Shown piece by piece: positions 8,853-55,220 of a stretch of DNA of 64,000 nucleotides. The translations under genes and the position numbers were made by a program. Source of the stretch: an uncultured Cytophagia bacterium (GTDB lineage: Bacteria > Zhuqueibacterota > Zhuqueibacteria > Thermofontimicrobiales > Thermofontimicrobiaceae); assembly GCA_964605145.1 (NCBI GenBank), contig CAZSBG010000006.1, forward strand, positions 28,788-92,787, in the 5' to 3' direction. Each line of letters opens with the position of its first letter. Position 1 is the stretch's first letter. Below the pieces are notes generated by a model, which was not told the origin of the DNA, searched no databases, and worked only from the letters and a program-made list of their open reading frames with translations.

Positions 8853-9566
8853 TTAATTCTGTTTAAATGTCTCTCTCTGAAAAAACTCAACCCTCTTTTT
8901 CTTGGAATTTAAGTTCAACTGTTTTAAATATCTAACCACCTGAAACCAGCTTAACTTTAAATTGCCGTACATCGGTGAATTTAACTCGCGCATAATTTTT
9001 ATGCTGCCATTCTCGGGATTTTCAATGACCAACTGTTTTATTTTTTCTTCGACGCTTTTATCCCCGGCATCCGACGAAATCATTTTATTTAAATACGCTT
9101 CTCTCTCGCTTGCATCGTCTTCGGAGTGAGAAGAATGACTCGTTTCTTCTTTATAACTTTCAGTGTCTCGTCTCACCTGACTGACACTTCGTTGTTCACC
9201 ACGCGGTCTGGATTTATCGAAATCAGCCACCGCATCTTCGATCGAATCGAAGGCTTTTAAAATATAATGAAATTCCAACAATTCAAATACTTCATACACG
9301 TCAGGAATCATGCCGATAAGCTTGAGGTCGCCACCTTTCTCCCGAATACCTTTAATCTCACTGATAAAAATACCCCAACCTGCGCTGCTTATGTAATCAA
9401 CATTGGACAAATCGATAATAATGTTGTAATTGTTGGCGTCTAACAAGGTTTCAAGAGAGTGTTCTAATTCTGCGGAAGTAGTCGTGTCAATATACCCACC
9501 CACCTTTATCACAGAAATATTGTTGTCAACACCTGTTTGTTTAACAGACAATTGAATTCCTTCCAT
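8853..9566 (-). CDS. STAS-domain protein (anti-sigma-factor antagonist-like) with a ~130-aa C-terminal extension
   Basis: The N-terminal ~110 aa (IKVGGYIDTTTSAELEHSLETLL ... DLSNVDYISSAGWGIFI) is a SpoIIAA/RsbV-type STAS fold. The C-terminal part is Ser/Glu-rich and then has a predicted helical domain. The track start is TTG at 9611; the ATG at 9566 preceded by GGAG is preferred. Confidence 0.75.
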   Translation of the reverse strand: MEGIQLSVKQTGVDNNISVIKVGGYIDTTTSAELEHSLETLLDANNYNIIIDLSNVDYISSAGWGIFISEIKGIREKGGDLKLIGMIPDVYEVFELLEFHYILKAFDSIEDAVADFDKSRPRGEQRSVSQVRRDTESYKEETSHSSHSEDDASEREAYLNKMISSDAGDKSVEEKIKQLVIENPENGSIKIMRELNSPMYGNLKLSWFQVVRYLKQLNLNSKKKRVEFFQRETFKQN

Positions 9567-9699
9567 CGAATACTCCAAGATGTATGATTCGCAAAATTTT
9601 CTTAAATTCAAATATAATAGAAAAACAAGTAAAAGTCAACAAAAAAATATGATTTACATCTTTCGTTTTTTTAATATACTATCTCATTTCTCTAAAAAT

Positions 9700-12600
9700 T
9701 TACTTACGATTTTTTAGTAATTCTTCAGCTTTGATAATATGATTCGAAATATCGTCTCTGCCGGGATCTAATTCGAGTAATTTTTTCCATTCCCCTATAG
9801 CTTCCTTTAACTTACCGTTATTCGCATAAATAACTCCTGTATTTTCATAAGCATCCGTATCTTTTGGATCCAGTTCTTTGACGCGAAGGTAAGCTGAAAC
9901 AGCCTTTTCGTATTGGTGGGAACGATAATAAGAGTTTCCCAGAATACTGAATGCTTCTTTGAACTCCGGATAAATTTTTGTAACTTGGAGGAATTGCTCA
10001 ACAGCTTGCTCGTAATTATGCTCATTATAAAATTTTAAACCCAGAATAAGGTGTTTCTCGCGAAGTGGGTCCTGTTTCGACAGGAATGAATTTGAATCTT
10101 CAGAATCATTTGTAACCTGGCTATTGGAAAAATTCATAAAATTATTCTCTTCGGATGCTCGTTTCTTTTCAGGATTTTTTGGCTGACCTTCGAGCACAAG
10201 CTCAGCTTCATCGTCCTGCAATTCGCCTTTTTCGAAAAATGAGATGTCCGATTCGATTTCATCCAATAAATCATTGAATGAAAATTCATCGCCCATAATT
10301 TCATCGTCCTCTAAAATATCCTGTTCATTAACTTCCGACACGTCCTGGACATCATCCAATAACTCCATGGTTTCATCTTGCGATTGATTCTCATCCTCTT
10401 CTTCGGAATCTTGAATTTCTTGTTCATCACTCAAGTCCAGTTTTCCATTATCGCCATTTTTATCCGTATCGGTTTGAAAAATTTCATTTTTAAAACTCGT
10501 TTCATCAACCAGTGTTTCGAAACCCAGATCGTCTGAGTTGTCTTCTTCAGAATCTTCGAGTAATTCATCTAAATTTATTGATGGTTTTGGTCTTTCCTGT
10601 TCTTCTTTCGGTTGATCAATTTCGTCAGGCTCGTCTGAAATTTCTTCTTTTGAATCTTCAAAGTCTGACGTTTCATTTAAATCCAAATCGTTTTCTTCAT
10701 CGTGTTCCCCCTGTTCATCCCAAATATCTTTGAAGCTGAAATCGTGCTCCAAGCCGAGATCATCAACGTCCTCAGCTTCTTCCGAAACGTCATCATCATC
10801 AAAATCAATATCGTCTTCCAGGTCAGTTGACTCTTCCTCTTCAAAAAAGATATCTTCCTCTGATTTTTCATCCGATGAATCGAAATCATCTTCACTTTCC
10901 GCAGTTTCTGATTCATCCTCGCGATGAATACTTGATTCATGCAAACCACCCTCTTCTTCATCGTCTTCTTCTTCATCCCGTTCTTTTTTGAGCAGGTCCT
11001 CAATTGGCATGGTCATCAGGCTTTCGAGGTAGAAGTTATCATCCGGATCCTTTGGCATCCTGACTTGCTTTGGCTTCCTGGGTTTATTTTTCTTTTCAAC
11101 GGGTCGTTCATCATCTTCTTCGTGACCGAGTTCTTTTTTCGATTCCTCCGGCGGCGGTGGTAAGGGAGGTTCGTCGTAGCTTCGGTCAAGAATAATCTTC
11201 CCGTCCAATGTTAACATCGGGGTACCCGGGGGTTTCATTCTCTTTTTCTTGCCTGACCGGGCGATATAAGCTTCCCGCAACTGCCGTGTGTTTAATCGAC
11301 TTCGAACGAGTTCATCATAGATTCGGCTTTCATTGATTTCCGTGTAGGTGTATTTTTCTGTGTTGAGTTCTTCGCTAATTCTCTTGGCACCAAATTCCGG
11401 ATGTTTCTTTATAATGTCATATATCTTCGTTTTTTCTTCGATACTCAGATGTTTCGCCTCGACGGCAATGGTTTCGTCAATGGAATAGGCGTCGATCCCT
11501 TCTTCTTCGAATATTTTTTTGTATTTATTATAGTATGCATAGGTTGTGATGCCTGATTCCTCACACGCTTCGCGGATATTTTTTCCGGCTAATATGGCGT
11601 TATGCGCTTTCTGCGCGCGATGCAATTCAATTTTTTCCGGCGAACTTTTTTCTTTGATGGCAACAACAGTGATATCGTCATTTTGGTCAAAGCCTTCTGT
11701 AAAAGAATGTATTTCATCTTTCAATTTATCGATAAATGCCTTGGCACGTAACGTTCCATGCTTACGTATCACATCCTGCAATCGCTCTTCACTGAACAAT
11801 TCACGGCGACCATTCATGGCCTCGGTGATACCATCGGTGTAAATCAATAGGATATCATCTTCGGCTAACTGAATTGTGTCCGATTCGATCGAACGTTTGA
11901 ACAATTCAGGATCCGGCAGTGAAATGCCCACCGGGAATCCCCTGGGATTTAAATAATACGTTTTCTTTGAACCCCGTCTGTAAAGAATCATTGGATTGTG
12001 CCCGGCGCTGGCGTAATTAATTCGTCGCTTTTTGGAATCAATGATGACATAAAACAGGGTCACAAACATTCCCTTTTTCATATCATTGACGACAAACTCG
12101 TTCACACGCGCCAACACCTCTGAAGCTGAACGAATGGAGCGCGCTTCGGTTCTCAGGGCAGTCCGAATCATTGTCATGATAAGTGAACCGGGAACGCCTT
12201 TTCCTGACACATCAGCAACGACAATCCCCAAAGTATCTTTATCCACTTCAACAAAATCGAAATAATCACCGCCAACTTGTTTGGCCGCTTCATAATGCGA
12301 TGCTATCTCGTATCCCTCCAGAACCGGGGTTTCTGCCGGAAGCAATGTCTGCTGTATATCCTGGGCCAGTTGCATTTCCTTTTGAATCCGCTCTTGTTCA
12401 GCGAGATTTTTCTGGGATTGTCGAAATTTATCCGTTATATCGCTAAAGGCTTTGGCAATCTCGCCCACTTCGTCGCCGCTATCGAAATCAATTTCGTCTT
12501 TGACATCTCCGCCATGACCCAGATCACTCACCCAGGTTGAGAGCTTGCGAAATGGATTCATTATTAAATAGATGAGCAATGTCACGCCGAGATAGCTCAG

Positions 12601-13593
12601 CGCCAAAATCATAAATGCTGTCAGAAGATCTCTCGTCCGAACCGAAGCCACCTTGCTGCTGACGACATCTTTTTGAAATTCCAGGTAGACGGTTCCAACC
12701 CTTACCCGAGAAGCATTGTATATATCGCTTACAAAGCTGTAAACTTCCGTTCCACTGTTGTCGTCTTTATATTTGTAGAGATTGGGACGTGGTTCATCGC
12801 GATCTGAGGGAATAACAAATTCCTGCCCCAGCAATGTTTCATCAGTTGAATTAATGATATAATTGGTCGTATCAGTGACTGACAGACGATAAAAATCGTC
12901 TTTTGACTCCTGAAATTCCTTAACTTTGAGCGCCACATAAAATATTTTCAAATCTTCATCTTCATTATCGATGATACTGCGGGCAATACTTTTGCCGGTA
13001 GGTCGCTCGATGGCAACAAATTCATCCAGCACTTCGTTCCCATGCTTGAAAAAATAATAGAAATATCCGATCGTAATAGCAACGAATAATATTAGTGCGG
13101 AAATGATTGAGTAGCGCATTTTCAAACTGACAGATATGGTGGGAGTCTGAATCACTTTTTTCTTGCGAAAAGAACTGACCCTGTATTTCGTCAGCCTGAG
13201 TTCATTGCCTTCTTCGGTATGATGGTATTCAATTTCATCCAGCAGCTTGCGCATGATAAAAATTCCCAGACCACCCTTTTTACCGATATCAACATACCGC
13301 TTCAAATCCGGGTCTGCAACTCGGGACGGATCAAAATATTTTCCCTGGTCGATAAGCACAACACTCATGCTGTTTTTCTTGACGATGACGCGCATTGTAA
13401 TCATGCCCTCCAGATCGCGGTAGGCATGCTTAATGATATTCGTCGCGGCCTCGTCAATGCACAGCTTGAATGCATTTACCACTGTATCCGGGAAGCTATG
13501 TTTGCGCCCTGCTTTGGTGACAAAATTCCGCAGTTCGCCCAGATAATCAATGTGAGCGGGAACTTTTATTTCTTCTTTAATCGCTGCTTTCAA
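9700..13593 (-). CDS. 1,297-aa multidomain transmembrane signalling protein. Domains, N to C: RsbW/SpoIIAB-like HATPase kinase, TM, periplasmic sensor, TM, HAMP, SpoIIE/PP2C phosphatase, HTH-like segment, ~370-aa polyacidic disordered region, TPR repeats.
   Basis: The N-terminus (FKLCIDEAATNIIKHAY ... GGLGIFIMRKL) matches anti-sigma-factor serine-kinase HATPase_c. There are two TM helices (aa ~160-182 and ~326-348). The PP2C motifs are YEIASHYEAAKQVGGDYFDF, VVADVSGKGVPGSLIM and YTDGITEA. The C-terminal TPRs are LILGLKFYNEHNYEQAVEQF.... Confidence 0.75.
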   Translation of the reverse strand: MKAAIKEEIKVPAHIDYLGELRNFVTKAGRKHSFPDTVVNAFKLCIDEAATNIIKHAYRDLEGMITMRVIVKKNSMSVVLIDQGKYFDPSRVADPDLKRYVDIGKKGGLGIFIMRKLLDEIEYHHTEEGNELRLTKYRVSSFRKKKVIQTPTISVSLKMRYSIISALILFVAITIGYFYYFFKHGNEVLDEFVAIERPTGKSIARSIIDNEDEDLKIFYVALKVKEFQESKDDFYRLSVTDTTNYIINSTDETLLGQEFVIPSDRDEPRPNLYKYKDDNSGTEVYSFVSDIYNASRVRVGTVYLEFQKDVVSSKVASVRTRDLLTAFMILALSYLGVTLLIYLIMNPFRKLSTWVSDLGHGGDVKDEIDFDSGDEVGEIAKAFSDITDKFRQSQKNLAEQERIQKEMQLAQDIQQTLLPAETPVLEGYEIASHYEAAKQVGGDYFDFVEVDKDTLGIVVADVSGKGVPGSLIMTMIRTALRTEARSIRSASEVLARVNEFVVNDMKKGMFVTLFYVIIDSKKRRINYASAGHNPMILYRRGSKKTYYLNPRGFPVGISLPDPELFKRSIESDTIQLAEDDILLIYTDGITEAMNGRRELFSEERLQDVIRKHGTLRAKAFIDKLKDEIHSFTEGFDQNDDITVVAIKEKSSPEKIELHRAQKAHNAILAGKNIREACEESGITTYAYYNKYKKIFEEEGIDAYSIDETIAVEAKHLSIEEKTKIYDIIKKHPEFGAKRISEELNTEKYTYTEINESRIYDELVRSRLNTRQLREAYIARSGKKKRMKPPGTPMLTLDGKIILDRSYDEPPLPPPPEESKKELGHEEDDERPVEKKNKPRKPKQVRMPKDPDDNFYLESLMTMPIEDLLKKERDEEEDDEEEGGLHESSIHREDESETAESEDDFDSSDEKSEEDIFFEEEESTDLEDDIDFDDDDVSEEAEDVDDLGLEHDFSFKDIWDEQGEHDEENDLDLNETSDFEDSKEEISDEPDEIDQPKEEQERPKPSINLDELLEDSEEDNSDDLGFETLVDETSFKNEIFQTDTDKNGDNGKLDLSDEQEIQDSEEEDENQSQDETMELLDDVQDVSEVNEQDILEDDEIMGDEFSFNDLLDEIESDISFFEKGELQDDEAELVLEGQPKNPEKKRASEENNFMNFSNSQVTNDSEDSNSFLSKQDPLREKHLILGLKFYNEHNYEQAVEQFLQVTKIYPEFKEAFSILGNSYYRSHQYEKAVSAYLRVKELDPKDTDAYENTGVIYANNGKLKEAIGEWKKLLELDPGRDDISNHIIKAEELLKNRK
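10083..11193 (-). repeat. Polyacidic low-complexity disordered region (D/E-rich, ~370 aa) within the multidomain signalling protein
   Basis: The coding strand is dominated by GAA/GAT/GAG codons. The Ser-rich track ORF on the opposite strand at 10730-10927 is an antisense artefact of this region. Confidence 0.8.
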
Positions 13594-13625: not shown

Positions 13626-15548
13626 CTATTTATTCCGCTGCCGTTGTCTCTCTTTTGCCTGATCGATGGCGTCCAATATTTCCTGGTTATAAGGTTGAAT
13701 TTCTAACAGCTCTTCCCAGGTTTTTATTGCGTCATTATATTTTTCAGCTCTATAGAGATTAATTCCTCGATTATACCGCTTGGTCATTTCCGGGGTCATT
13801 CGCTGTTTTTTCGCATTGGCGCGACGGTCTGCATCTTTATAGAATTTCTTTAGCTGCTCATTATTGGGCCGATGCTTAAGCGCCTCTTCGAATGAATTCA
13901 TCGCATTGATATAATCCTTTGTGATATAATACCGATATCCCTGCTGAAATAACTCATCGAATTGCATTTGCTGCTTGTATCGATTGCTGCGCGTTTCAAT
14001 TGCGTTAATTTGCTTTTGATCCGGATTCAACATACGCACATTGTTCAAAACACTGATGGCTTCCAGGTAGCGGCCCTTCCTGGCAAAATTATCCGCTCGG
14101 TTAATCAGCGAGAGTATTTTCTTTTCATAATCTGTATTTGCTTTGGCAATCCACTCTTTTGCCAGTACATTATTAGGATCGCGATCCAACATTTTCTGCC
14201 ATTCAGCAATGGCTTTTTCGTATTCATCGACTTCGTAGTGCGCCAATCCTGCATCAAATTGCCTGTCCAGGAAAATTTTCAATTCTTCGCGTCGTTTTTC
14301 TTCCTCATTACGGGTTCTGATTTCATCATAGGCTTGCTTAATTTTATCATCGCGTTTCTGAATTGTTGCTTCCGCCAATTTACGCGCTTCTTCGATCACC
14401 GTTGAATTTGGAATTTCATTCTCATAGCTGGTAATGAAATTGAATTCTCTCAACGCCCGGGCATAATCTTCAATTTCAAAATATTGTTTTCCGCGTTCCA
14501 GACTCTCCGCGATTTTTTCGTCCCGTTCCCAAATTCGCTGCTGTTCCACTTTCCGTTGAATTTCCTGCAGCCGCCGCTCTTCTGCTATTTTCACAAGCTC
14601 CTTTTTCGATTTTCCAAATGTCATGCTCAAAGAAATTCGGTGGCTTGCATCGAATTCATTTTCTGAAAATTTTCCATACGAGTAATCTATCTGAAACTTG
14701 TTAACCACTGCGCCAGCGCCAAAGGCAAGCTGATTGTTATTCAGCCCAACGCGCAGCATGGCGAAATTATTGAACACATATTCAGTGCCGGTGTGATATT
14801 TGAACGGCTCATATTCACTTTGCTCAAAATCCATAAAAATCGTGAACTGATTTCCCCATTCATTGGTTAAAATGGGCTTGGCAAATCCCATTCGGAAATT
14901 CAGCGGGTGGACATCTGTTTCGGAAATTAACTTCAGTCTCGGTCCGACAACATTTTGCAGCGCCACTCCAACAGAAAGCCCGCTCAAAAGTGCATTGGTA
15001 AAATTGGGTCGATATAAAAATCCAAGATCGAGTCCAACGCCTGTATCCGATATTTTAAAAATGCTTTGATGCTCAACCTTCAGGTTCACGCCGACACTGA
15101 TATTCCACGGCAACTGTTTTCCGTAGGAAACCAAAAACTGTTGATTGGAGAGTGAATTATCGTCCCCATAATAAACATTATCATTATCTCTTTCAGGAAT
15201 TCCACCGGTTCCAATGCTGATGGCGGCCACACCGAACGAGCCCAACGCCACTGTGGGATGAGCATAACCCACATAAAAATATTGAGTATCCATGACGAGA
15301 TTGGTATAAAACAAGCTCACGTTTTTTCTTTGAATATAATCCAGTCCGGCGGGATTCCAATAAACTGCGGTTGCATCGAACGGCATCGCAACGTAGGCAT
15401 TGCCCAGCGCCAGAGCCCTGGCGCCGACCCCAAGATTGAAATTGCTTTGCGTCCCTGCAAAACCATCATCTCCTTTAGCTATACCGGCAAACATACCAAA
15501 TGCCAGAAAAAAACTGAAAATCCCTATGAATAAATTTGATTTTCGCAT
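13626..15548 (-). CDS. FadL/PorV-like outer-membrane beta-barrel (N-terminal ~310 aa) fused to a ~330-aa TPR/coiled-coil C-terminal domain
   Basis: Signal peptide, then GVGARALALGNAYVAMPFDATAVYWNPAGL, the FadL/PorV-family N-terminal motif. The first half has alternating beta-strand-like segments. The C-terminal half is TPR-like (YEKAIAEWQKMLDRDPNN, YNDAIKTWEELLEIQPYN) and rich in charged coiled-coil. It starts 17 nt after the giant T9SS cargo gene. Confidence 0.65.
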   Translation of the reverse strand: MRKSNLFIGIFSFFLAFGMFAGIAKGDDGFAGTQSNFNLGVGARALALGNAYVAMPFDATAVYWNPAGLDYIQRKNVSLFYTNLVMDTQYFYVGYAHPTVALGSFGVAAISIGTGGIPERDNDNVYYGDDNSLSNQQFLVSYGKQLPWNISVGVNLKVEHQSIFKISDTGVGLDLGFLYRPNFTNALLSGLSVGVALQNVVGPRLKLISETDVHPLNFRMGFAKPILTNEWGNQFTIFMDFEQSEYEPFKYHTGTEYVFNNFAMLRVGLNNNQLAFGAGAVVNKFQIDYSYGKFSENEFDASHRISLSMTFGKSKKELVKIAEERRLQEIQRKVEQQRIWERDEKIAESLERGKQYFEIEDYARALREFNFITSYENEIPNSTVIEEARKLAEATIQKRDDKIKQAYDEIRTRNEEEKRREELKIFLDRQFDAGLAHYEVDEYEKAIAEWQKMLDRDPNNVLAKEWIAKANTDYEKKILSLINRADNFARKGRYLEAISVLNNVRMLNPDQKQINAIETRSNRYKQQMQFDELFQQGYRYYITKDYINAMNSFEEALKHRPNNEQLKKFYKDADRRANAKKQRMTPEMTKRYNRGINLYRAEKYNDAIKTWEELLEIQPYNQEILDAIDQAKERQRQRNK

Positions 15549-15565: not shown

Positions 15566-18500
15566 CTATTTTATCACTGCAATTTTTATGAGTGCTGATT
15601 TTCCATTACCAGTGGATATTCTGGCAACGTAGACGCCGTTTAATACCTTATATCCCTGACCATTTCTGCCATCCCAAATCACATCCGAATCGTGCAAACC
15701 TTTTCGACCCTGAGGCTCGAGTTCAGAATAGGTGCGTGACCAAACCAGCTCGCCGATCAACGTATATATTTGTATTTTCACTTCAGTGTCTTCATCCAGG
15801 TAATAGACGAAATTGGTCACCGGCCTCCCGATTTCTCCGAAAGGATTGGGATAATTGCTGAACGCCTTGTCAAAATCCGCTTCAATTATTACCGATGGCT
15901 CAGATTCAAAATTAAGCGCTTCCAATGTTTGCCCATTGACATTCTTTAATTTCGGCGTTTGCCCGGATTCCTCATCATAAAGATAAAGAGAATTGACCGA
16001 ATCAATCGCTATTTGAAAATCACTAATTTCGGCTGTGGTTGCAATATCCACTTTGAACTGAACCTGGTTTTCAATTTCAGGTTTGAGCGTATCTATTTGT
16101 GAAAATAGAATTTCAATTGGATTTGACGTTGGAATTGCTGTTATCTGTCCAAAAACTTCATTGTTTTGCTGATTATTCACAACACAGACGCGTGAAATAA
16201 CCTGGGCCGGATTTGTAACAGGCACGCCAAATCGATCCTTCAATTTAATTTTAACGCCTGTAAACAGTATATTGTTCGAAAACGCATCGCCGGATGCCAG
16301 CAATTCCAGTCCCATCATGGACACGCCGGTATCCCCCCGGGCAATCGTGTTTTTTGTTGTTGTGGGCAACATACTCACAGTGACGCTTTTTTCTTCAGCA
16401 GAAATTGGAATCGAAACATTTTTCAGCAAGATTGCTTCTGCTGCAACAGGTAGATTTGAGTTTTCATCTTCCGGCCAACTCACGAGGTCAATCGCGATAT
16501 TGCTTGGATCTCTCTCTGATGTCGGTGCGGTGATTGTCCAGAACAGTGAATCATTATACGCAGCCGTCTGGGTTAAATCCTGCGCGATGGAATATCCCTG
16601 GCCTTCCGGCAAAGTTAACGTTGCATTGAAATTTCCCAAAATGTTTGCATCGCCGGTTTTTGAAAGATAAGCGCTCACTACAAAGTTTTGATTCGTTGAA
16701 ACGATACCATCCAGAGCGCTTGCCGGAGATAATATTTTACCTTTCAATTGAATTTCTGCCCGGCGAACCACGTCCACTTCCAGCGAATCCGATGTTCTGG
16801 TGAATGATATTCGACTGTTGGCATCCTGCGCTGTTAATTTCATCCAGATGTGCTGATCGTCGATTGTGCCTCCCGGCGTGGTGATTGTCCAATTCACTGT
16901 TCCCTGGTCGCCAACTCCCACCGGTAATTTTGGATAGGATTCCGGCGTTGTAAATCCTCCTTCCAATTGCAGTTGCACGGAAGGCGCGCCGGTACAGTTA
17001 AACCAGCTCACATCAGCTTCAATTTGAAAGGATTGATGAGTTGACAGAATTTTATCAATCGCCCCGACCGGTGATACAATCCGGAGATTCTCGATCCAGG
17101 CATTTGCCGATTGTTGCGTCTGAACATAGTAATATTTTGATCGGGTCGGCACCATTGCTTTTTCATTTGTATTCACATCTTTGGGTATCGTATTGATGGT
17201 GACAACAATTGGTGCTTTCAGGGTTTCGACTTCAGGAGCCAGCAATCGCCAGGTTACAGGAATATCCGGCTGGAACGGTTTCACTGTATCGTCCTCCGTG
17301 GTGACGCCGGTTGCTCCAAAATCGATGCTCAAATACGCCGCGCCTTCAAGAGGTGCATCCCCAGAATTAATGACAATCGCACTCAAATCGAATTCCTGTC
17401 CCATGGAAAGTGTGCTGTCGGTGGAAGGCCAGGAAATCCATGCCCGATCGATCAACAACGTCGCCCGATTTTCAACTACGACAGAAATACTGTCAGATGC
17501 CGTGACCTCATCGCCTCCAACGGTTCCTGTGACCAGAACTTTTATCCACTTCTCATTGGAATGTGCGTTTTCAGGAGCGATAAGTTCCCAACCGGCCACG
17601 TCTGCGACGTTCGCTTTGATTGAATCTGTGCCAGGCGCAAATCTGTATCCTGCCGGGAGGTTCAATCTGGCGTTTGCGCTGGTGATGTTTTCCGACTTCA
17701 TAATATCTACCTGAACCCAAAAATTCTGAAGTGTGGATAAAGTATCATCCAGCGCCCCTTCAGGCGAACTTATTTCGAATGATTCCACGGCAAGCTCCAG
17801 AGGCACCGTTCTCACCACAAGTGAATCAAACGGGTCCGTATTTTCTATCAAAGCAAATGAGCCGGTATTTTCATCCAAAGGCGGTTTTGAAATCTTCGCG
17901 ACAATCGTATCGTTACTGGACGCATATGAAGGCGGCACGACCTGCCATTCCACTGTTTCATTAATTTCAAACGATGTGGTATCGGATGATTTTTGTTGTT
18001 GGTCGACCACGACAAAATAATTCTGCGGCATGAATAAGGCCAGTTCGCCGCTGGCGTCCACATCTGCTGTTCCGAGATTTTCAATTTGAACCTGAAATGG
18101 CGCGACCTGGCCAATCGAGTAAATCGAATGTTCCTTATTGATGGAAATTTTCAACAGGGCCGGATCGTGCACACGAACCAACGCTGTGGAGTCAGATGCT
18201 CCACCGATTGTAGCCGGAAGGCCGCTGCCGTGTGAAATAGCTGATTCAATTCGCACTGTAAATTTCACCTGTTCAGTGGCCACGGACTGTGCCGCAACAT
18301 TGAAAGTAGCAATGGCCTCTCCTGAAGGTAAAATATTATCGATATTCACAGAGGGTATGATGTACCCAGGCGCTGTTAAACTCACCAGCACATTATCAAC
18401 TTGTTCCCCCCCGGTATTACGGATTTTTGATCTCACGGAAAAAGCCTGGTTTGTGTTCACCTGGCCGATATCGTACTGGTTAATATTTCGACACACCGGT

Positions 18501-21500
18501 TCCGTAAAATCGATGAAAACATCTGCAGACGGACGAACATAAACCGCGCCTGAGTCTGCCACCTGAAAAGTTGTATTTGTATTTAAATAGGTTCCACTCA
18601 AATTTAGTTTTATTTTTGCCATTCCGCCCAAAACACCGGTACTTGTCACGCGGTAAATCAGCGTATCGGCTCCATTCCAGGACAGCGTTAAATTTGGATT
18701 ATTTTCAAATTCGAGTGGCGCCACGATGGTGTAATCATCCTGCTCATTCCCGGTAATTATGATGGATACATCCTCTCTGTTTGGCGGATCCAATTTTATG
18801 AATCCCGCTCCGCTATCTTCAACAGCCACGATAATTTGCCATTCGAAAGGACTCAGCGCTCTGACCGTATCCTGCGATGGCGAAATGGAAACAATTTTGA
18901 ACTTGCCTGGTCGCTGTACAGTGACTGTATCCGTCGAATCGACTGAGGGGCTGATAAAAATTTTATCAGGCTCCGTCGGTGTATTTTCTGCAAATGCGGT
19001 ATCAATTGAGGCGGAGAATACTTCATCCCAAATCCAGTCCGATGACGCCTGTACATTGAACTTTAGCGTATCCGTGCTCGCGCCTTGCACAATTTCAAGG
19101 GAATCCACCGGATTCAAAATAGTTGATGTACTATCACTAATTAACGACATTTTGATATTTTGGGCCGCGTCTTCTCCCTGGTTCTGGACAAGAACGGCTA
19201 TCTGGAAAACCTGATTATTATCCACATACGGCGCATTGGGCGCAATATTCACAGTTTTCAGAATTCGAATATCGGCCGGCATTTCTACCTTAATTGTTGT
19301 GCTATCTTCAGCGGTTTTTTCTTCCTGACTGTTTATCTCCTCGGCAAAAACCGATACATGAATCGTTCGACTGCCTGCAACAGAACCGGTTGTGTCCACT
19401 GAAAAAATCAGGCTGTCCGTAGCGCCGGAAGGCAGCTTGAAAAAGCCGAGTGTTTCAAAACTTATTGGGAAACTGACCACATAATTTGTGTCATCCCCAA
19501 AACTCACAAAGTCATTCAGGTGTGTCGAATCGATTGCAATATCTCCGCCACCGTTATTAGTTAGCGAAATAATAGTCTGCCAGGGCATTGATTGATTTAC
19601 TGTTACTTCTGGTTGGGATGTTCGAATATAATCTATAACAAGCTCACCCGGCGCCTGCACCGTTACCCCGGTCACTTTGCTTTTGATGATTTGACCGCTG
19701 ATCATATCATTCAAATAAACTGTTCCTCCAATGGTAACTGAACCGATTGTTGTGCCGGTTTCATCAACCGTTACTATCAGCGTATCGGTCAATCCGGCAT
19801 CGAGCAAACTATCACCACTTGTCTTGAATGTGTCAGGATATAACATCTGGTACTCGCTCGAAATATCTGAACCGCCATAGGTAAAATTTACCCGAGCGCT
19901 ATCCAGCCGCAACGGCGCTCCCCCATTATTGCGAATTACCATGTTCAGAAACCAGTTCTCAGCCTGACCGCTGGTGACCGTTCTCTGACTGGGATAAAAA
20001 TCGACTATTTCCAAATCAGATGCTTGTTTGACATACCATTGATCGGTTGTGTCTGCGTTCAAATCCGAATAGGGTAGTTCTGAGTTTTCATCGCTTGCAT
20101 AGACTTTTCCATCGATTGTTATGCTGTCGAGTGTGGCATTTGTGCCTACCGTTACGGTAAAGAACAGACTATCCAGGCTGTGCCCTGCGATTGAGGTTGG
20201 ATTCGTCGGATAAGGCACGAGCGCATATTCGTCACTCACATCTAAAATTGGTGGCGTTAAATTTGAATAAGAGAATCTCACTGAATCCACAATCGCCGTT
20301 GCATCCCCATTATTCTGAATCCTTGCGGAGATAATTGTATTTGTCCCCTGGGTAACGGTATCTGCATCAGCTTTCACTCTCAAAAATTGTAGTGAAGGAG
20401 GCGTTTGAACCAGCCATTTATCCGTTTCATTGGCTGCCACATCGCTTACAGAACTGCCATTTACCCTGCAATTAATGAAACCATCGATCTGGATTGAATC
20501 TGTCAATGCGTTTGACTTCACATTCACTAAAAAACTTAGGGTCTTATTTCCATTTCCTGGTAACACTGAAATCGTATCATTACGACTCACAATATAATCG
20601 CCTGAACGATTTGAATAACCGGGTGCAGGGCCGGTAAATTCTAATCCAGCGCCATCAGAAATTATCGTGGCATTTGAAGCGCCATGATTTTTCACGGCCA
20701 TCAGAACCGTTATATTTTGTTGATTGCGGCTCACTTTATCAAAATCTGAACTAACAGACAGAATCTCCAACCCGGAAATAATTATGCTGGTATCCCCAAC
20801 TGCACTTCCCCTGACAACACTATTCGCCTGAACGAGAGCCGTTCCACCTGTTACACCTGCATTGACAACGAATGAAATTTGGCCTGCTGTGTCTGATACA
20901 ACCTGTGTGCCTCCGATACCCGGATTTTCATCAGGTGTTGTAATGGTACCCAATGTTGTTGACACGGTGAAATATTCGCCGCTGGAAATTGGATTGTTAT
21001 CGCTGTCACGAATTGTATCCGACGTAACCACAGAAAACGAATCAGGATCGGCCGGTATTATTTCAGGAACAGGATGAAGTACAATTTCGCCTATCGGTAC
21101 GCCGGGATTTACAGTAATGAGTCCAGTCGTATCATTTTCTGCTGTAGCATGCACGGCCAGAATTTTTCCGTGCGCCGGCGCTGTTGATGGCGAGAAATCA
21201 AGCGTTGAACCGGTCCACAATACAGCCGGCGCTAATGTACTGTCACTGGACCAATCTACAACCGCCGGCCCGAGATAAACATTTCCTTCGTCATAAGCAG
21301 CCGCATACAGTGTCAATGTTTCATCGGCTGAAATGGTACGCGTCGTCACCACATTGCCGGCGCCATTATCTGCATCGCGAATGAGCACGTGGTGAATGGC
21401 TCCCACAGTAAATGTACCTGTCGAATCGGCTCCCACACTCACACTGTCAGCATAAATTCGTCCACTCGTATAGGGCGTAGCCGGACTGAACATTGTGCTC

Positions 21501-23656
21501 GTTCCCTGCAATGGAGTTGGCGTATCCAGATCTCCGGTGGTTCCCCAGTCTGCAACCACTTCTCGAATGTAATTATCATACTGGTCGTATCCTGCAGCGT
21601 AAAGGGATATTTGATCATCCAGATTCAACATATAATCACCAACCTCGGAGCCCAAACCACCCGGATTATCCCGAATGACAATGTGATTCAATCCATCTGG
21701 TTTCACATTGAAATTATTCGAAACACCACTCTCGCCGGAGCCGGCTGCAGTGATTTTATTATCCGTATATTTTTTTGTGATTGTTAAATTTCCTGACCAG
21801 GTGCCTGCACTGAAATTTCCTGTGGAACCGGGGCTCAAAGAACCGGACTCATCCGTCAAACTGACCGCATTTGTAAATCCGGTCACTATATTTTCGTATG
21901 CATCGTTTGCTTCAATAGTCACCGAGAAAGGTGTTCCAGCAGTCTGCGGGCTGGAAATATCTGAAATTGAAAAATGATCCAGTGATGCCGGGTTCACATT
22001 AAAGCTGTTTGACGTTCCGTTTTTATCGCTGCCATTGACAATGATTTTATTACTGGAACCAGTTTTCGTGACAATCACATTACCATTCCAGCTCCCTCCA
22101 CTGAAACTGCCTGAAACCTGGGGAGTGAGTGTGCCTGTTAAATCACTCATCGCCACAGGACCGGCGTACGTTGGTATTGTATTCCCTTCTCTATCCTCTG
22201 CCGTTACAGTTATCGAAAAAGAATTACCGGCTGTTTGTGGTGTTGAAATAGCGTCAATAGTAAAATGATCTAACGCTCCCACTTGTACATCAAAAGCATT
22301 TGATGTCCCGGTTTCGCCTCCGCCGGATCGCTGAACGCTGATCTGATCATTGGTAAAATCGGCTGTAATCTTCACCTGACCGTTCCATTCTCCGCCGCTG
22401 AAATTGTCACTCTGATTGGGCGAGACTGTCCCGCTATTATCCGAAATATCTACTTTTCCGGTAAAACTTGTTACGGTGTTATCATAATTGTCCTGGGCAG
22501 TAACTGAAATGGAAAAATATTCGCCCGCAGTTTTGGGAGAAGAAATCGGCCCGATGTAAAATTTTGCCAAACTTCCGGGATTCACATTGAATAAATTCGA
22601 TGTGCCAACTTTGGAACTCCCGGATGCTGTAATGTAATTATCGCTCTGGCTTTCCGTGATTGTTACGCTTTGCGTTAATGAACCTGAGCTAAAAATATTT
22701 GATGTTTCGTTGAGCGAACCGGTAAGATCGGTCAACAATACAGTGCCAGTAAAACTTTCCACAAGATTCTCATACTGATCCCTCGCAGTAACTGTAATGC
22801 TGAATGACGTCCCGGCCGTTTTTGGACTGGTGATTGTGTTAAATGTAAAATGATCCAGGCCGGCAGGCAAAACATCAAATTCAGATGACATGCCGGATAT
22901 ATCATTATACGTGGCTGTAATTTTATTATTCGACCTGCTTTTAGTAAACGTCACCGTACTATTCCAGACACCTGCTGTGATGCTGCCGGTAGATGTTGGG
23001 CTAATAGTATCGGTTAAATCTGTCAGCGCAACAGAAGATGTATGCGACGTGACCGTATTGTCGTATGCATCCTGTGCGGTAATTGTGACAGAAAAATTTG
23101 AACCAGCCGTTGCATCGCCACTTGTACTGACATCAAAATGATCCAGCGCTCCGGCAGCAATTGAAAAATTTGGTGTATTCCCGTCATCGATATGGGTGTA
23201 TCCCTGGGTCATGGTAATAATTTTTACGCTATAATTATCCGCATCCGGGTTATTCCCCACAGTTCCGATACTGATTTCCACCTCGGTTGATGCCGGAACT
23301 TTTGTTCCGGTGCCATCACGTTCGATCATGACCGAGTCACCATTAACATATTGTATGGAAACACCGCCATTGATACTGCCATCCTCCGAATCGGCAATTT
23401 GAACGCCCGTGAGATCGAATCCCGACGGAAAAATTAATTTAATTTTGCCATCCACCGGGATGCCGTCATCAGCATTATTCCCTGTCGCTGAAGTTGTGAA
23501 AGTAAAAGTATAAATCGCGGACTCCCCGGCAACATTATCACTCAAACTTGTACTCATATTTGCTAGATCACCTTGCGCAAATACTATAGTTGCATTCCCT
23601 GAAAAAATGAGAATTATTACTATTACGATCCCTGCTCTCAGATGTCTTATCCTCAT
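15566..23656 (-). CDS. Giant (~2,696-aa) cell-surface protein with tandem Ig-like repeats and a C-terminal type-A T9SS sorting domain
   Basis: Signal peptide MRIRHLRAGIVIVIILIFSGNATIVFA (ATG at 23656; the track start at 23671 is TTG). At least five ~95-aa tandem repeats share the motif LDHF..ISSPQTAG..FS.TVTA.D.Y.N...F.G.V.L. The last ~90 aa (NYPNPFGE...VYVARISTGNGKSALIKIAVIK) match the Por_Secre_tail / TIGR04183-type CTD. Confidence 0.85.
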   Translation of the reverse strand: MRIRHLRAGIVIVIILIFSGNATIVFAQGDLANMSTSLSDNVAGESAIYTFTFTTSATGNNADDGIPVDGKIKLIFPSGFDLTGVQIADSEDGSINGGVSIQYVNGDSVMIERDGTGTKVPASTEVEISIGTVGNNPDADNYSVKIITMTQGYTHIDDGNTPNFSIAAGALDHFDVSTSGDATAGSNFSVTITAQDAYDNTVTSHTSSVALTDLTDTISPTSTGSITAGVWNSTVTFTKSRSNNKITATYNDISGMSSEFDVLPAGLDHFTFNTITSPKTAGTSFSITVTARDQYENLVESFTGTVLLTDLTGSLNETSNIFSSGSLTQSVTITESQSDNYITASGSSKVGTSNLFNVNPGSLAKFYIGPISSPKTAGEYFSISVTAQDNYDNTVTSFTGKVDISDNSGTVSPNQSDNFSGGEWNGQVKITADFTNDQISVQRSGGGETGTSNAFDVQVGALDHFTIDAISTPQTAGNSFSITVTAEDREGNTIPTYAGPVAMSDLTGTLTPQVSGSFSGGSWNGNVIVTKTGSSNKIIVNGSDKNGTSNSFNVNPASLDHFSISDISSPQTAGTPFSVTIEANDAYENIVTGFTNAVSLTDESGSLSPGSTGNFSAGTWSGNLTITKKYTDNKITAAGSGESGVSNNFNVKPDGLNHIVIRDNPGGLGSEVGDYMLNLDDQISLYAAGYDQYDNYIREVVADWGTTGDLDTPTPLQGTSTMFSPATPYTSGRIYADSVSVGADSTGTFTVGAIHHVLIRDADNGAGNVVTTRTISADETLTLYAAAYDEGNVYLGPAVVDWSSDSTLAPAVLWTGSTLDFSPSTAPAHGKILAVHATAENDTTGLITVNPGVPIGEIVLHPVPEIIPADPDSFSVVTSDTIRDSDNNPISSGEYFTVSTTLGTITTPDENPGIGGTQVVSDTAGQISFVVNAGVTGGTALVQANSVVRGSAVGDTSIIISGLEILSVSSDFDKVSRNQQNITVLMAVKNHGASNATIISDGAGLEFTGPAPGYSNRSGDYIVSRNDTISVLPGNGNKTLSFLVNVKSNALTDSIQIDGFINCRVNGSSVSDVAANETDKWLVQTPPSLQFLRVKADADTVTQGTNTIISARIQNNGDATAIVDSVRFSYSNLTPPILDVSDEYALVPYPTNPTSIAGHSLDSLFFTVTVGTNATLDSITIDGKVYASDENSELPYSDLNADTTDQWYVKQASDLEIVDFYPSQRTVTSGQAENWFLNMVIRNNGGAPLRLDSARVNFTYGGSDISSEYQMLYPDTFKTSGDSLLDAGLTDTLIVTVDETGTTIGSVTIGGTVYLNDMISGQIIKSKVTGVTVQAPGELVIDYIRTSQPEVTVNQSMPWQTIISLTNNGGGDIAIDSTHLNDFVSFGDDTNYVVSFPISFETLGFFKLPSGATDSLIFSVDTTGSVAGSRTIHVSVFAEEINSQEEKTAEDSTTIKVEMPADIRILKTVNIAPNAPYVDNNQVFQIAVLVQNQGEDAAQNIKMSLISDSTSTILNPVDSLEIVQGASTDTLKFNVQASSDWIWDEVFSASIDTAFAENTPTEPDKIFISPSVDSTDTVTVQRPGKFKIVSISPSQDTVRALSPFEWQIIVAVEDSGAGFIKLDPPNREDVSIIITGNEQDDYTIVAPLEFENNPNLTLSWNGADTLIYRVTSTGVLGGMAKIKLNLSGTYLNTNTTFQVADSGAVYVRPSADVFIDFTEPVCRNINQYDIGQVNTNQAFSVRSKIRNTGGEQVDNVLVSLTAPGYIIPSVNIDNILPSGEAIATFNVAAQSVATEQVKFTVRIESAISHGSGLPATIGGASDSTALVRVHDPALLKISINKEHSIYSIGQVAPFQVQIENLGTADVDASGELALFMPQNYFVVVDQQQKSSDTTSFEINETVEWQVVPPSYASSNDTIVAKISKPPLDENTGSFALIENTDPFDSLVVRTVPLELAVESFEISSPEGALDDTLSTLQNFWVQVDIMKSENITSANARLNLPAGYRFAPGTDSIKANVADVAGWELIAPENAHSNEKWIKVLVTGTVGGDEVTASDSISVVVENRATLLIDRAWISWPSTDSTLSMGQEFDLSAIVINSGDAPLEGAAYLSIDFGATGVTTEDDTVKPFQPDIPVTWRLLAPEVETLKAPIVVTINTIPKDVNTNEKAMVPTRSKYYYVQTQQSANAWIENLRIVSPVGAIDKILSTHQSFQIEADVSWFNCTGAPSVQLQLEGGFTTPESYPKLPVGVGDQGTVNWTITTPGGTIDDQHIWMKLTAQDANSRISFTRTSDSLEVDVVRRAEIQLKGKILSPASALDGIVSTNQNFVVSAYLSKTGDANILGNFNATLTLPEGQGYSIAQDLTQTAAYNDSLFWTITAPTSERDPSNIAIDLVSWPEDENSNLPVAAEAILLKNVSIPISAEEKSVTVSMLPTTTKNTIARGDTGVSMMGLELLASGDAFSNNILFTGVKIKLKDRFGVPVTNPAQVISRVCVVNNQQNNEVFGQITAIPTSNPIEILFSQIDTLKPEIENQVQFKVDIATTAEISDFQIAIDSVNSLYLYDEESGQTPKLKNVNGQTLEALNFESEPSVIIEADFDKAFSNYPNPFGEIGRPVTNFVYYLDEDTEVKIQIYTLIGELVWSRTYSELEPQGRKGLHDSDVIWDGRNGQGYKVLNGVYVARISTGNGKSALIKIAVIK
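15569..15850 (-). other. Type-A T9SS C-terminal sorting domain of the giant surface protein
   Basis: YPNPF ... IWDGRNGQGYKVLNGVYVARI ... K terminal pattern. Confidence 0.75.
21750..23160 (-). repeat. In-frame tandem coding repeats (~285 nt units, about five copies) encoding Ig-like domains near the 5' end of the giant gene
   Basis: Recurrent nucleotide and protein-level units (...LDHF.ISDISSPQTAG.PFSVT..A.DAYEN.VT.FT..V.LTD.SG.L.P...G.FS.G.W.GN..ITK...NKI...GS...G.SN.FNVNP..L). Confidence 0.7.
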
Positions 23657-23889: not shown

Positions 23890-24399
23890 TTATTCTTTTT
23901 CGGGCAGAATTCTGTGTATTTTTTCCTGCTTTAAAACTGATCTTTCATCTTCTATTATTTCCACTGTTATTCTATAGTTATCGGCAGGTTTTAAAGGATT
24001 TTTTACAATCGCGAACTTGACATCCACTTTTTCATTCGGTTTTATTTCTCTTCCAAGCCCGGATCTTTTCAGCGTCAATATCTGGTCATTGACCTCAACG
24101 TCAAATCCACCATTCATTGTTGTTGAGCTGGCTATCATCAATTCTGATAAATCAAACTCCGCTGGAAAAGTGACATTCAATTTTGCCGTCGGCGAAATCG
24201 GTTTTTCGATTCTAAATTCAATTTTGTAAATCGATTTTGCACTTGATTCAGGATGTCTGGCAATCACATTGACAGTATCGGCAGGTGCAGCGCTCGCCAC
24301 ACTGGTGAAAAAATAAATTATTGTAATAAAAAATAGTATTGGGATGAATCTGGTCTTCCCTGTCTCAAACCTATGATATGTTTCAGAAAGATACATCAT
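23890..24399 (-). CDS. Small secreted protein (169 aa), paralogous to the N-terminal domain of the giant surface protein
   Basis: Signal peptide, then SIYKIEFRIE...KLNVTFPAEFDLSEL...NGGFDVEVND...RSGLGREI...VKNPLKPADNYRITVEII. This aligns with the giant protein's AIYTFTFTT...KIKLIFPSGFDLTGV...NGGVSIQYVN...RDGTGTKV...GNNPDADNYSVKIIT. There is no T9SS CTD. Confidence 0.7.
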   Translation of the reverse strand: MMYLSETYHRFETGKTRFIPILFFITIIYFFTSVASAAPADTVNVIARHPESSAKSIYKIEFRIEKPISPTAKLNVTFPAEFDLSELMIASSTTMNGGFDVEVNDQILTLKRSGLGREIKPNEKVDVKFAIVKNPLKPADNYRITVEIIEDERSVLKQEKIHRILPEKE

Positions 24400-24716: not shown

Positions 24717-25847
24717 TTATTTCAAAATTGCCCGAAGAAGTATTAAAAATCCTTTACCATCGTTCTCTGCTAATTTTAAATTCTTCTCAGCTTTTTTGAA
24801 ATCAGGATTAATTTTCAATGCCTGACGGAATTCTTCAAGCGCATTTAAGAACAGATTTCGACACTGAATCAAATAGACAATTCCCAGACTATTCCGCAAA
24901 TCTGCATAGTCAGGATTTTTCTGAATGACATCTTTCAGTTGTTTTGTATATTGCATGATGAATTCATCATCTTTACCTTTGCCGCCAAACATAAATTTCA
25001 GATAAAACTCATTCTCAAAATCGTAGCCCACAATATCTGATCGGTCGGACTCGGCAATTTCCAGTGCGTTCACTGCTTCATCTATATTTTCGTCATCCAG
25101 ATGTTTGAGAATAGTGTCAATATTTTCCGGTTTGAAAAACTGCTTTTTCTCTTTTATTTCTGTCAACAGTGATTTAATCTTTTCAAGACGAATCACTTTA
25201 TTGGGAAGATTTTCGTTCTCTTCAATGCCTTCAACAATTGTCTTCAAAAAAACCAGACAAAGATTGAACATGGCGACTACGTAATCCGAATTCAGTTCAA
25301 TCGCTTTTTGCAATTCAGAAATTGCTTCGGAATATTTTTCCTTATTTAAATATGCGTATCCTAAATTATTATGAATATCCGCATAGTCAGAATTGTATTC
25401 AATTCCTGTATTAAAAACGTCGATAGCCTCCTGATACAATTTCTCTTTTAAATACGCTCTGCCGAGATTATTATAAGCTTCTACCATTTCAGGATCGATT
25501 TCCAGAGCCCGCTTAAATTCGGAAATCGCCTCATCCACCATATTTTTGCTCAGGAAAACCATCCCAAGTTTGTTGTTGGAAACAGCGTGCTCTATCATTT
25601 TCACTTTATCTGAAATATAGAACAGCAATTCAATGTCAGAAATCATACTTTGGTGGAGCTTGTTCACTTCGAGCTTTATGTCCGAAATACCGATTTCATT
25701 GGATAGCTCTACACCTTTTGACACTGTTACTTTTCCATCATCAAATACGCTTGATACAACCTTTTCATTGGGTTCCAGGTATTGTGTTTGAATATGGAAT
25801 TTTTTACCGCCCGCCAGAATCTCGCTATTCAATCCAATATTTTCCAT
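24717..25847 (-). CDS. TPR-repeat protein
   Basis: Multiple canonical TPR units (AYNNLGRAYLKEKLYQEAIDVF, IHNNLGYAYLNKEKYSEAISELQKAIELN, LRNSLGIVYL...) with a short N-terminal beta-rich domain. Confidence 0.7.
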   Translation of the reverse strand: MENIGLNSEILAGGKKFHIQTQYLEPNEKVVSSVFDDGKVTVSKGVELSNEIGISDIKLEVNKLHQSMISDIELLFYISDKVKMIEHAVSNNKLGMVFLSKNMVDEAISEFKRALEIDPEMVEAYNNLGRAYLKEKLYQEAIDVFNTGIEYNSDYADIHNNLGYAYLNKEKYSEAISELQKAIELNSDYVVAMFNLCLVFLKTIVEGIEENENLPNKVIRLEKIKSLLTEIKEKKQFFKPENIDTILKHLDDENIDEAVNALEIAESDRSDIVGYDFENEFYLKFMFGGKGKDDEFIMQYTKQLKDVIQKNPDYADLRNSLGIVYLIQCRNLFLNALEEFRQALKINPDFKKAEKNLKLAENDGKGFLILLRAILK

Positions 25848-26993: not shown

Positions 26994-27983
26994 TTAGATC
27001 ATTTGATAGAGTTCAATATTCAGAACAAGTGAAATATTGGAATCACTTAAATCGACATCATTAGCGATGAGCGAAATTTTCGTGAAGTTGATATTCACAT
27101 TTTCATCTATCACTTGTTGAAGAAAATTCAAAATATTGCTCTTTTTTCCAACTGCTCTGAATTTTATCGGTACAATTTCAAAATCGCCTTCGATTTTATT
27201 TTTCCCAGAGTCAAATTGCTTTAATGCCAGACCCGATTGTCCGCATAAACGCGATAACTGATTCTTCAAATCATTCGCATTTAAATATTTTGGTTCCTGA
27301 ATCGTACCAAATTCTCCCGCACCATCACCAACATTTACATTTCCATTCATCAATGCCTGGCGATATGGTCTTCCCATAATATTTCGCCTGTTACGCGACA
27401 ATATTTTCATTTCAGAATCATAAAGCTTCTGCTTCAAATTGCTGTTTACATCATTAATCGCTTTGTCATTATTGGCCAGGAACTCAACTAAAAATTTCCC
27501 ATCATTGTACGTGATCATGGTAAAATTTACATTTTCAGGAACTGTCGTGATAATATTACTTACAGTATTCACGCCTGTTTGAGATTTTCTCAATTTCTCC
27601 CGAACCGCAGGTGAAACGGTAGACATTGTTGCGGTTTCATTTTCAAGGCTCGATGTTTCTACTGTATCGTCAGCAGCAGGTTGCTCAGTTAAATAAGGGG
27701 AGGTTTCCGGTTCTTTATCCTTGCCTGAAAAAATCAGAAAATATCCCACGATGAATAGCAAAATAACACATCCAGCGATCAAAATATAAACAATTTTTTT
27801 AGATCCACCTCGGTTCATGTAGTTGGAGTATTCCGAACCATCTATCCCGCCATCGCTCATGTAATTCCCGCTCTCATGCTCCCCGACATCAGACTCAAAA
27901 CTGTCTTGGAAGTCTTTGTCTTTGTCGTTTTCTTCACCATCAAATTGATCCTGGTCATCTCCGATTAGATTAATATCTACCAT
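26994..27983 (-). CDS. Bitopic membrane protein, possibly PilN/PilO-like pilus assembly component
   Basis: Acidic cytoplasmic N-terminus, a single TM (IVYILIAGCVILLFIVGYFLIF), and a ~240-aa periplasmic domain. It sits directly downstream of a PilM-like gene. Only topology and context support the assignment. Confidence 0.3.
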   Translation of the reverse strand: MVDINLIGDDQDQFDGEENDKDKDFQDSFESDVGEHESGNYMSDGGIDGSEYSNYMNRGGSKKIVYILIAGCVILLFIVGYFLIFSGKDKEPETSPYLTEQPAADDTVETSSLENETATMSTVSPAVREKLRKSQTGVNTVSNIITTVPENVNFTMITYNDGKFLVEFLANNDKAINDVNSNLKQKLYDSEMKILSRNRRNIMGRPYRQALMNGNVNVGDGAGEFGTIQEPKYLNANDLKNQLSRLCGQSGLALKQFDSGKNKIEGDFEIVPIKFRAVGKKSNILNFLQQVIDENVNINFTKISLIANDVDLSDSNISLVLNIELYQMI

Positions 27984-28101
27984 GACCCCTCCTATTTAAA
28001 ATTAGTATACGTTTCTCTTAGAACCATCGAGAAAGCAGGTGAATCCTGCACCAAAAATATTCCTGTTGCCTTATTAATCATGCAGGAATAATTATCTATG
28101 T

Positions 28102-29073: not shown

Positions 29074-29210
29074 TCTTTATCCCCACCTGACATCTATCCG
29101 AAATGTACAATCAAATTTAAAAGGAAAGAGAGAAATATTTAAATTATAACACCGATGGATGTTTTTGCCTCCAAAAGCACCCATCGGTAAATGCTAAATT
29201 ACTATCTAAA

Positions 29211-50765: not shown

Positions 50766-50774
50766 GGATAGAAA

Positions 50775-54573: not shown

Positions 54574-54590
54574 AGTTGTTCGGTCTTTTT

Positions 54591-55191: not shown

Positions 55192-55220
55192 TTCAATTTT
55201 AATCGATATAGGATAATGTA

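Follow-up and report, generated by a model that had tools for sequence, protein, structure and literature searches.

What kind of protein is a bacterial chain of almost 2,700 amino acids that begins with a signal peptide, runs through tandem immunoglobulin (Ig)-like repeats and ends in a putative sorting domain, and by which route would it reach the cell surface? The question is raised by a giant gene on the minus strand (15566..23656) of the 64-kb window analysed here, that is, the whole stretch of 64,000 nucleotides from an uncultured bacterium of KSB1/Zhuqueibacterota. We think it fairly likely that its product, hereafter the giant, is a type IX secretion system (T9SS)-type surface fibre, made by KSB1/Zhuqueibacterota (FCB superphylum) and served by a dedicated PorV-family barrel partner. 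This proposal starts from direct observations, namely the intact open reading frame (ORF), the domain architecture, the homology of the C-terminal domain (CTD), the PorV-family membership of the neighbouring gene product, the synteny, the divergence of the repeats and their constant copy number. A surface fibre or adhesin role is a reasonable one to propose from the sequence, and it would offer, in the giant, a conserved and concrete candidate for the principal surface fibre of a phylum that has yet to be cultured.

The giant protein and its domain architecture

The giant gene is a single uninterrupted ORF encoding 2,696 amino acids from an ATG, followed by a stop codon; there is an alternative upstream start (TTG at 23671), the ATG at 23656 being judged the more plausible. 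The mature protein, of about 284 kDa, is acidic (pI 4.2), rich in Ser and Thr and contains 4 Cys. Its sequence is identical to that of a public protein (P0001) from a metagenome-assembled genome (MAG). In an independent assembly, a relative with 92% identity has a length of 2,698 amino acids and differs from the giant by two one-residue gaps only in the visible part of the alignment, and more than 20 orthologues with 48–71% identity measure 2,686–2,706 amino acids. The giant ORF is thus no assembly artefact and is under purifying selection. The estimate of about 2,700 residues given in an earlier note on this DNA therefore stands, and the concern voiced there, that the ORF might be interrupted in the true sequence, is clearly put aside. 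Substitutions between the giant and its 92% relative are densest in the repeats (12.6%), less frequent in the N-domain (4.2%) and in the domain preceding the CTD (3.1%), and rarest in the CTD (1.1%), no other part of the protein being as well conserved.

The chain starts with a Sec signal peptide (residues 1–28, MRIRHLRAGIVIVIILIFSGNATIVFAQ; 23573..23656, minus strand), recognised by inspection and conserved in the orthologues, which has a basic n-region, a 17-residue hydrophobic core and a probable cleavage site around the VFA/QG junction. It is followed by a unique beta-sandwich domain (N-domain, residues 29–167; 23156..23572, minus strand), which AlphaFold2 models with a pLDDT of about 90–96 and which we presume to form the distal tip of the fibre. 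The N-domain has no Pfam or PDB sequence match, a PDB profile search with it came back empty, and when its family was compared with Pfam, 6 of 17 members showed weak matches to DUF2808 and nothing else turned up. Next come five tandem repeats of 96–99 residues, referred to as type A (residues 168–263, 264–359, 360–458, 459–555 and 556–652; 21701..23155, minus strand), delimited by BLAST, the first two being covered by the AlphaFold2 model. The N-domain and five Ig-like repeats expected within the first 650 residues or so are thus in place, with a unit of about 97 residues.

Structure prediction also bears out the Ig-like nature of these repeats. The AlphaFold2 model of residues 29–360, which comprises the N-domain and the first two type-A repeats and was built with 22 orthologues, is all-beta with a pLDDT of 95.1, and its top Foldseek matches in the PDB are FdeC (E-value 2.4e-9, TM-score 0.43), the Ig-like domains of PrgB, and InvD; the S-layer protein SbsC is also among the fold matches. 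In the type-A repeats the giant would therefore share both the fold and the tandem arrangement of FdeC and InvD, members of the invasin/intimin group with tandem Big_1-type Ig domains. Unlike these proteins, however, it has neither an inverse-autotransporter barrel nor a C-type lectin tip, and its predicted route is that of a CTD protein rather than type Ve secretion. Neither Big_1 nor Invasin_D3 is recognised in Pfam, Invasin_D3 staying below threshold (18.1 bits against a cut-off of 33, residues 864–945), and as far as the models tell, the likeness to invasin and intimin is one of fold only.

The remainder of the chain is beta-rich, as had been anticipated. Two type-B repeats (residues 653–750 and 751–848) and a third, divergent unit reaching to about residue 919 (20900..21700, minus strand), found by BLAST and an internal hidden Markov model (HMM), lead into about 13 related CARDB-like beta-sandwich domains of 105–130 residues (residues 920–2470; 16247..20899, minus strand), which were delineated by HMM iteration. 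One of these (residues 1474–1535) passes the Pfam CARDB model PF07705, with 26.0 bits against a gathering score of 22.7. Giant surface proteins of bacteria and archaea with CARDB domains likewise contain arrays of CARDB-like beta-sandwiches of about 100–125 residues, CARDB being a generic module that defines no mechanism. A further beta domain (residues 2471–2601; 15854..16246, minus strand), taken from the AlphaFold2 model, precedes the CTD.

The C-terminal model (residues 1890–2696, pLDDT 84.5) is a string of beta-sandwiches, and its Foldseek matches include C3, C5, A2M, CD109 and TEP1, which could be read as the mark of a bacterial alpha-2-macroglobulin-like protease trap. We regard such an identity as extremely improbable: the TM-scores are only 0.11–0.14 with an rmsd around 60 Å, so that the model matches arrays of the macroglobulin (MG) or ASH type in a generic way only, and no A2M domain was detected with Pfam or NCBIfam. 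The candidate was rejected, as the chain has no CxEQ thioester motif and only its 4 Cys. Altogether, the giant is a conserved protein, predicted to be secreted and displayed at the surface, that is built of about 24 beta-sandwich domains, a number from which we infer a length of roughly 90–100 nm for the fully extended fibre. As a CTD cargo with Ig-like repeats it is an ordinary kind of protein, such CTD-bearing giants being common in the FCB superphylum.

Divergence and copy number of the type-A repeats

Do the type-A repeats make the giant variable? The earlier note had described them as highly similar, repetitive also at the nucleotide level (21750–23160) and a plausible source of strain-level variation. 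Their location was closely matched, at 21701–23155, and they are unmistakable in the protein: although a self-BLAST of the whole chain returns the diagonal only, fragment-versus-whole BLAST brings out the five units of about 97 residues, with pairwise E-values of 1e-16 to 1e-28. The units are, however, far from highly similar, their mutual identity being 40–52% in protein and 48–57% in codon-aligned DNA. No two units have an exact DNA word in common that is longer than 12 nucleotides, neither Tandem Repeats Finder nor a seed-based search brings out an array in the giant gene, and the best ungapped DNA repeat covers 62 nucleotides at 71%. The repeat signal is thus far above chance in the protein and barely detectable in the DNA, where the units are so diverged that slippage or homologous recombination between them is not expected.

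Copy number points the same way. A repeat HMM counts exactly five copies in 24 of the 25 listed proteins of about 2,600–2,700 residues (48–71% identity), the remaining one (P0035) having four, and five copies are also deduced for the 92% relative, in this case from the gap-free alignment of the repeats rather than from an HMM count. The repeats therefore change by point substitution and not in number, and the five form an old, diverged spacer of fixed length.

These data bear directly on the idea of a contingency-type adhesin, whose DNA-similar tandem repeats would expand and contract by slippage or recombination and so give rise to strain-level variation in length. The repeats are indeed tandem and equal in length, and their number does differ, with 23, 20, 17, 14, 11, 5, 4, 3 or 0 copies, among old paralogues and deep lineages. 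Yet the low identity of the units in DNA, the lack of any long common word or recognisable array and the five copies retained in the 92% relative and in nearly all the listed proteins all speak against it, and even in the paralogue with 23 copies the units are no more than 40–61% identical. We consider this explanation highly improbable; the differences in copy number at depth are the product of ancient domain shuffling, not of instability. Tandem repeats at the protein level here do not imply instability at the DNA level, and neither the nucleotide-level repetitiveness nor the strain-level variation that had been suggested is borne out.

The paralogous giants (P0007, at L004:10001-23374, P0019, P0039, P0043 and P0055) throw some light on this shuffling. 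Their copy numbers of 23, 20, 17, 14 and 11 go with chain lengths of 4,457, 4,161, 3,875, 3,585 and 3,302 residues, respectively, and thus decrease in steps of exactly three. Identity between units is higher at lags of 3, 6 and 9 (0.46–0.61) than at other lags (0.38–0.49), indicating that the paralogue arrays were built from a three-domain super-repeat. The five copies of the giant in the window fit the same series (2 mod 3). In two more distant orthologues (L012:2347-9909 and L015:2461-9975; 38% identity), which still adjoin a gene for a PorV-TPR fusion of the kind described below, type-A repeats are absent and extra type-B repeats follow the N-domain in their place. The N-proximal stalk is the evolutionarily plastic part of the giant.

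The constancy of the repeats also bears on what the giant does. If it uses the same secretion route, it could be a structural component of a surface layer or sheath, acting as part of a lattice or as a ruler of fixed height, and not an adhesin that binds a ligand. It is striking how constant length and domain number remain over the range of 48–71% identity, and the protein is encoded by a single conserved gene with housekeeping neighbours, which lies at a distance of about 30 kb from dnaA and the replication origin (oriC) and is co-oriented with replication. Its acidic, Ser/Thr-rich composition with almost no Cys is, moreover, like that of many S-layer proteins, and SbsC is one of the fold matches mentioned above. 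Against this, Pfam and NCBIfam scans found no S-layer-specific domain or self-assembly motif, and a string of about 24 domains is seen more usually in fibres than in lattices. A role in a surface layer or sheath is, on balance, rather unlikely in our opinion, and we retain the T9SS-type surface fibre as the preferred interpretation.

The C-terminal domain and the PorV-family barrel

The CTD (residues 2602–2696; 15569..15853, minus strand) was identified as a T9SS type-A-like sorting domain from TIGR04183, from the PorU and PorZ models and from a PDB profile search. The last 105 residues taken in isolation score 27.6 bits (E-value 2e-6) against TIGR04183, whose cut-off is 23, and also match the CTD portions of the models for PorU, PorZ and T9SS-dependent proteases. 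Every one of the 44 family CTDs tested matches TIGR04183 as well as the CTD in the PorU model. In the PDB profile search the CTD of PorU (6za2) comes out best, and the domain of the giant, which is strictly C-terminal, displays an NxPNPF...K-terminal pattern in common with a canonical, PF18962-positive homologue (P0113). PF18962 itself is not reported for the CTD of the giant at an E-value of 0.01 or less, the level at which it matches 18 of the 44 family CTDs; among these 44, Pfam finds CHU_C in 37, FlgD_ig in 34 and Por_Secre_tail in 18, the matches mostly falling short of the gathering scores. A CTD of type B is not supported, TIGR04131 being absent from the NCBIfam matches and CHU_C scoring 17.7 bits against a cut-off of 27. 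On the profile evidence, the domain is best described as a diverged type-A-like T9SS CTD.

Immediately downstream, on the same strand, a gene (13626..15548) starts 17 nucleotides after the stop codon of the giant gene and encodes a predicted outer-membrane barrel of the PorV/PorQ family (residues 38–311) followed by a coiled-coil/TPR region (residues ~315–640), as judged from NF033709 and TPR matches. The barrel scores 136.2 bits against NF033709, the PorV/PorQ family model (cut-off 90), over residues 38–311. By its sequence it represents a distinct PorV/PorQ subfamily with a C-terminal TPR fusion, and not a PorP/SprF protein. The family of such fusions is large and uniform in size (630–696 residues), its members going by the NCBI name 'PorV/PorQ family protein'. 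Ten KSB1/Calditrichia loci came up when genomes were searched with the PorV-TPR protein, and in each of the nine for which upstream DNA was available a CTD-bearing giant ORF lies directly upstream of the barrel gene. Cargo and barrel genes adjoin in the same manner in another phylum: in a Gemmatimonadota MAG (L026:8470-10831), a 484-residue protein with the same kind of CTD is encoded directly upstream of a plain PorV-like barrel.

Several known systems help to interpret this pair. Cargoes that associate with their cognate barrel and with a TPR partner in the periplasm have precedents both in SprF, which binds SprB, and in the PorP–PorE–PG1035 complex, which anchors type-B cargo (PMC9143113). 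SprB–SprF of Flavobacterium johnsoniae and PorP–PorE–PG1035 of P. gingivalis resemble the system in the window in that a repetitive surface protein of giant size bears a T9SS CTD, a barrel gene adjoins and a periplasmic TPR element goes with the barrel. They differ from it in that they combine a type-B CTD with a barrel of the PorP/SprF family, whereas here a type-A-like CTD goes with a PorV/PorQ-family barrel; in that the TPR motifs reside in a separate lipoprotein, PorE, whereas here they are fused to the barrel; and in that the host belongs to a different phylum, the system in the window showing no evidence of gliding. A further analogy is offered by PorQ–PorZ and PorV–PorU in the attachment complex of P. 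gingivalis, where a type-A-like CTD is what attaches the surface protein to a barrel of the PorV/PorQ family; the CTD of the giant resembles those of PorU and PorZ, as it matches the CTD portions of both models. The cargoes are nevertheless dissimilar, PorU being a sortase and PorZ a propeller for lipopolysaccharide delivery whereas the giant is a predicted 24-domain fibre, and the barrel in the window scores far below the thresholds of the PorV and PorQ equivalogs.

From these elements we propose the following scheme. The 284-kDa acidic chain of about 24 beta-sandwich domains would be exported by Sec; its type-A-like CTD would then be recognised and the giant moved across the outer membrane. 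Once on display, the protein would have its CTD end at the cell, with the conserved N-domain forming the distal tip and the five Ig-like repeats serving as a spacer of fixed length. The PorV/PorQ-family barrel may be the dedicated shuttle or anchor of this fibre, and its coiled-coil/TPR extension, if periplasmic, could provide tethering or coupling in a PorE-like manner. The strict pairing with the barrel-TPR gene hints that type-A-like cargoes can have dedicated barrels outside Bacteroidota.

A number of observations weigh against this scheme. When TIGR04183 is scored in the whole protein, the CTD reaches 21.5 bits, just under the cut-off that the isolated domain exceeds. The barrel stays well below the equivalog models NF033710, NF033711 and NF052325 for PorV, PorQ and PorV2 (51 against 250, 64 against 220 and 71 against 325 bits), and a PDB search with the profile of the PorV-TPR protein returns TPR proteins only, the barrel having no PDB sequence match. 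Its pairing with the giant is read from synteny, that is, from the order of the genes and nothing else. The paralogue P0007, a protein of about 4,457 residues, carries the same CTD, yet in the sister genome that encodes it (GCA_049322915.1; 71% orthologue identity) its gene has no adjoining barrel gene, from which it follows that a dedicated partner is not obligatory for this type of CTD. None of the T9SS core genes (SprA/Sov, PorK/L/M/N, PorU) occurs in the 64-kb window, which is all of the genome that was covered. As to the literature, we found no paper reporting a T9SS in KSB1 or Calditrichaeota: the system has been discussed for several other FCB phyla and not for KSB1 (PMC11285876), and in Caldithrix, from the related phylum Calditrichota, gliding machinery of the Bacteroidetes type is reported to be absent (PMC5317091).

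Could the CTD, then, be merely an Ig domain of the FlgD kind? In that case the giant would be exported or anchored by another route in a lineage with no functional T9SS, and the barrel would be a FadL-type transporter with an unrelated job. Besides the undocumented status of the T9SS in KSB1 and the distance of the barrel from the PorV and PorQ equivalogs, this alternative can point to the FlgD_ig matches of 34 of the 44 family CTDs and to the FlgD structures that also appear in the PDB profile search. It does not, however, account for the strictly C-terminal position and the terminal pattern that the domain shares with P0113, nor for the fact that the CTD scores best against the models of T9SS cargo, PorU and PorZ CTDs. 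The adjacency of CTD protein and barrel in nine out of nine loci, found again in the Gemmatimonadota MAG, would also be hard to explain otherwise. We consider the FlgD-like alternative improbable and continue to favour a T9SS-type cargo with its own barrel. The description of the giant in the earlier note as a very large type-A CTD cargo is thus supported at the level of CTD homology, actual export by a T9SS being the likely reading of that homology; as for the profile threshold, the isolated domain exceeds it, the whole-protein score does not, and all 44 family CTDs match the model, and we count the match as a positive one.

Two further observations concern the surroundings of P0007. Its gene lies among genes for BatA/VWA-like, DUF4159 and TPR/BamD-like proteins (L004:1569-25807), a context resembling a Bat operon. 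In the sister genome, a gene close to that of the paralogue had faintly suggested PorZ; it has no NCBIfam match and hence provides no evidence for a T9SS.

The conserved six-gene module and its genomic setting

The giant and PorV-TPR genes stand in a row of six genes on the minus strand. Upstream of the giant gene lie a conserved gene for a 376-residue TPR protein (24717..25847) and one for a small secreted protein of 169 residues (23890..24399), which BLASTP identifies as a free-standing paralogue of the signal peptide and N-domain of the giant (E-value 6e-11, 26% identity over 146 residues) and which has no CTD. Six related loci yielded counterparts of the latter, which were read from the corresponding position and aligned; ORFs or gene calls of comparable size are present there as well. 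The small protein has no family match and carries a conserved N-terminal motif resembling MYLxET. On the other side, 32 nucleotides after the PorV-TPR gene, comes a gene (9700..13593) for a 1,297-residue fusion of an RsbW-like kinase, a HAMP domain, a PP2C (SpoIIE) phosphatase and TPR motifs. It is followed by a gene (8853..9611) for a 252-residue protein with a C-terminal extension, identified by a domain search as STAS anti-sigma-antagonist-like and presumed to serve the kinase/phosphatase as substrate.

Gene order with matching domain content is kept in loci where the giant retains 71% and 48% identity (L001 and L003). More specifically, the domain content of the kinase/phosphatase and of the STAS protein was confirmed in these two loci, and ORFs matching in size and position are found in the other KSB1/Calditrichia loci. 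The homologues of the giant carry the names KSB1, Zhuqueibacterota or Calditrichaeota. It is possible, and we put it forward as a tentative suggestion that we would not call probable, that the six genes make up a lineage-wide, previously undescribed surface-fibre module of KSB1/Zhuqueibacterota and Calditrichia, in which a type-A cargo with a cognate barrel anchor is placed under post-translational partner-switching control, possibly by way of the shared TPR arms. Such a cargo and anchor would be the type-A equivalent of SprB–SprF and PorP–PorE. Only one element of the system is moderately novel, namely the conserved association of the giant with the PorV-TPR fusion, with the paralogue of its tip domain and with the genes for partner switching; this too is deduced from synteny.

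Three MAGs titled 'uncultured Cytophagia bacterium' (L007, L009 and L012) carry a module of the KSB1 type, with 51–55% identity in the PorV-TPR protein; their Cytophagia labels are probably wrong.

As a whole, the window represents the oriC region in a genome from KSB1/Zhuqueibacterota. The probable origin of replication, at 49641–55220, is marked by dnaA-dnaN-recF-gyrB-gyrA on the minus strand facing yidC and mnmG on the plus strand, by an AT-rich gap (GC about 0.30) at 53.8–55.2 kb and by a change of sign of the GC skew near 52 kb. Scanning the window with Rfam and for tRNAs gave no match, and promoter and terminator scans were uninformative, terminators not being enriched and promoter-like matches being in modest excess. 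Elsewhere in the window, a gene on the plus strand (39944–42601) encodes an 885-residue protein in which a patatin-like phospholipase is fused to an Omp85/BamA-type barrel and which we take to resemble the PlpD-type (type Vd) secretion proteins. Finally, between the ComEA and RsmD genes, the region 26994–30107 (minus strand) encodes a protein with a PilM-like ATPase fold, a 298-residue protein whose N-terminus is like that of the pseudopilin GspG, and a 329-residue protein with no match. The PilM-like and unannotated genes of this region occupy the same positions in L001 and L003, and the three genes together may constitute a minimal pilus-like set.

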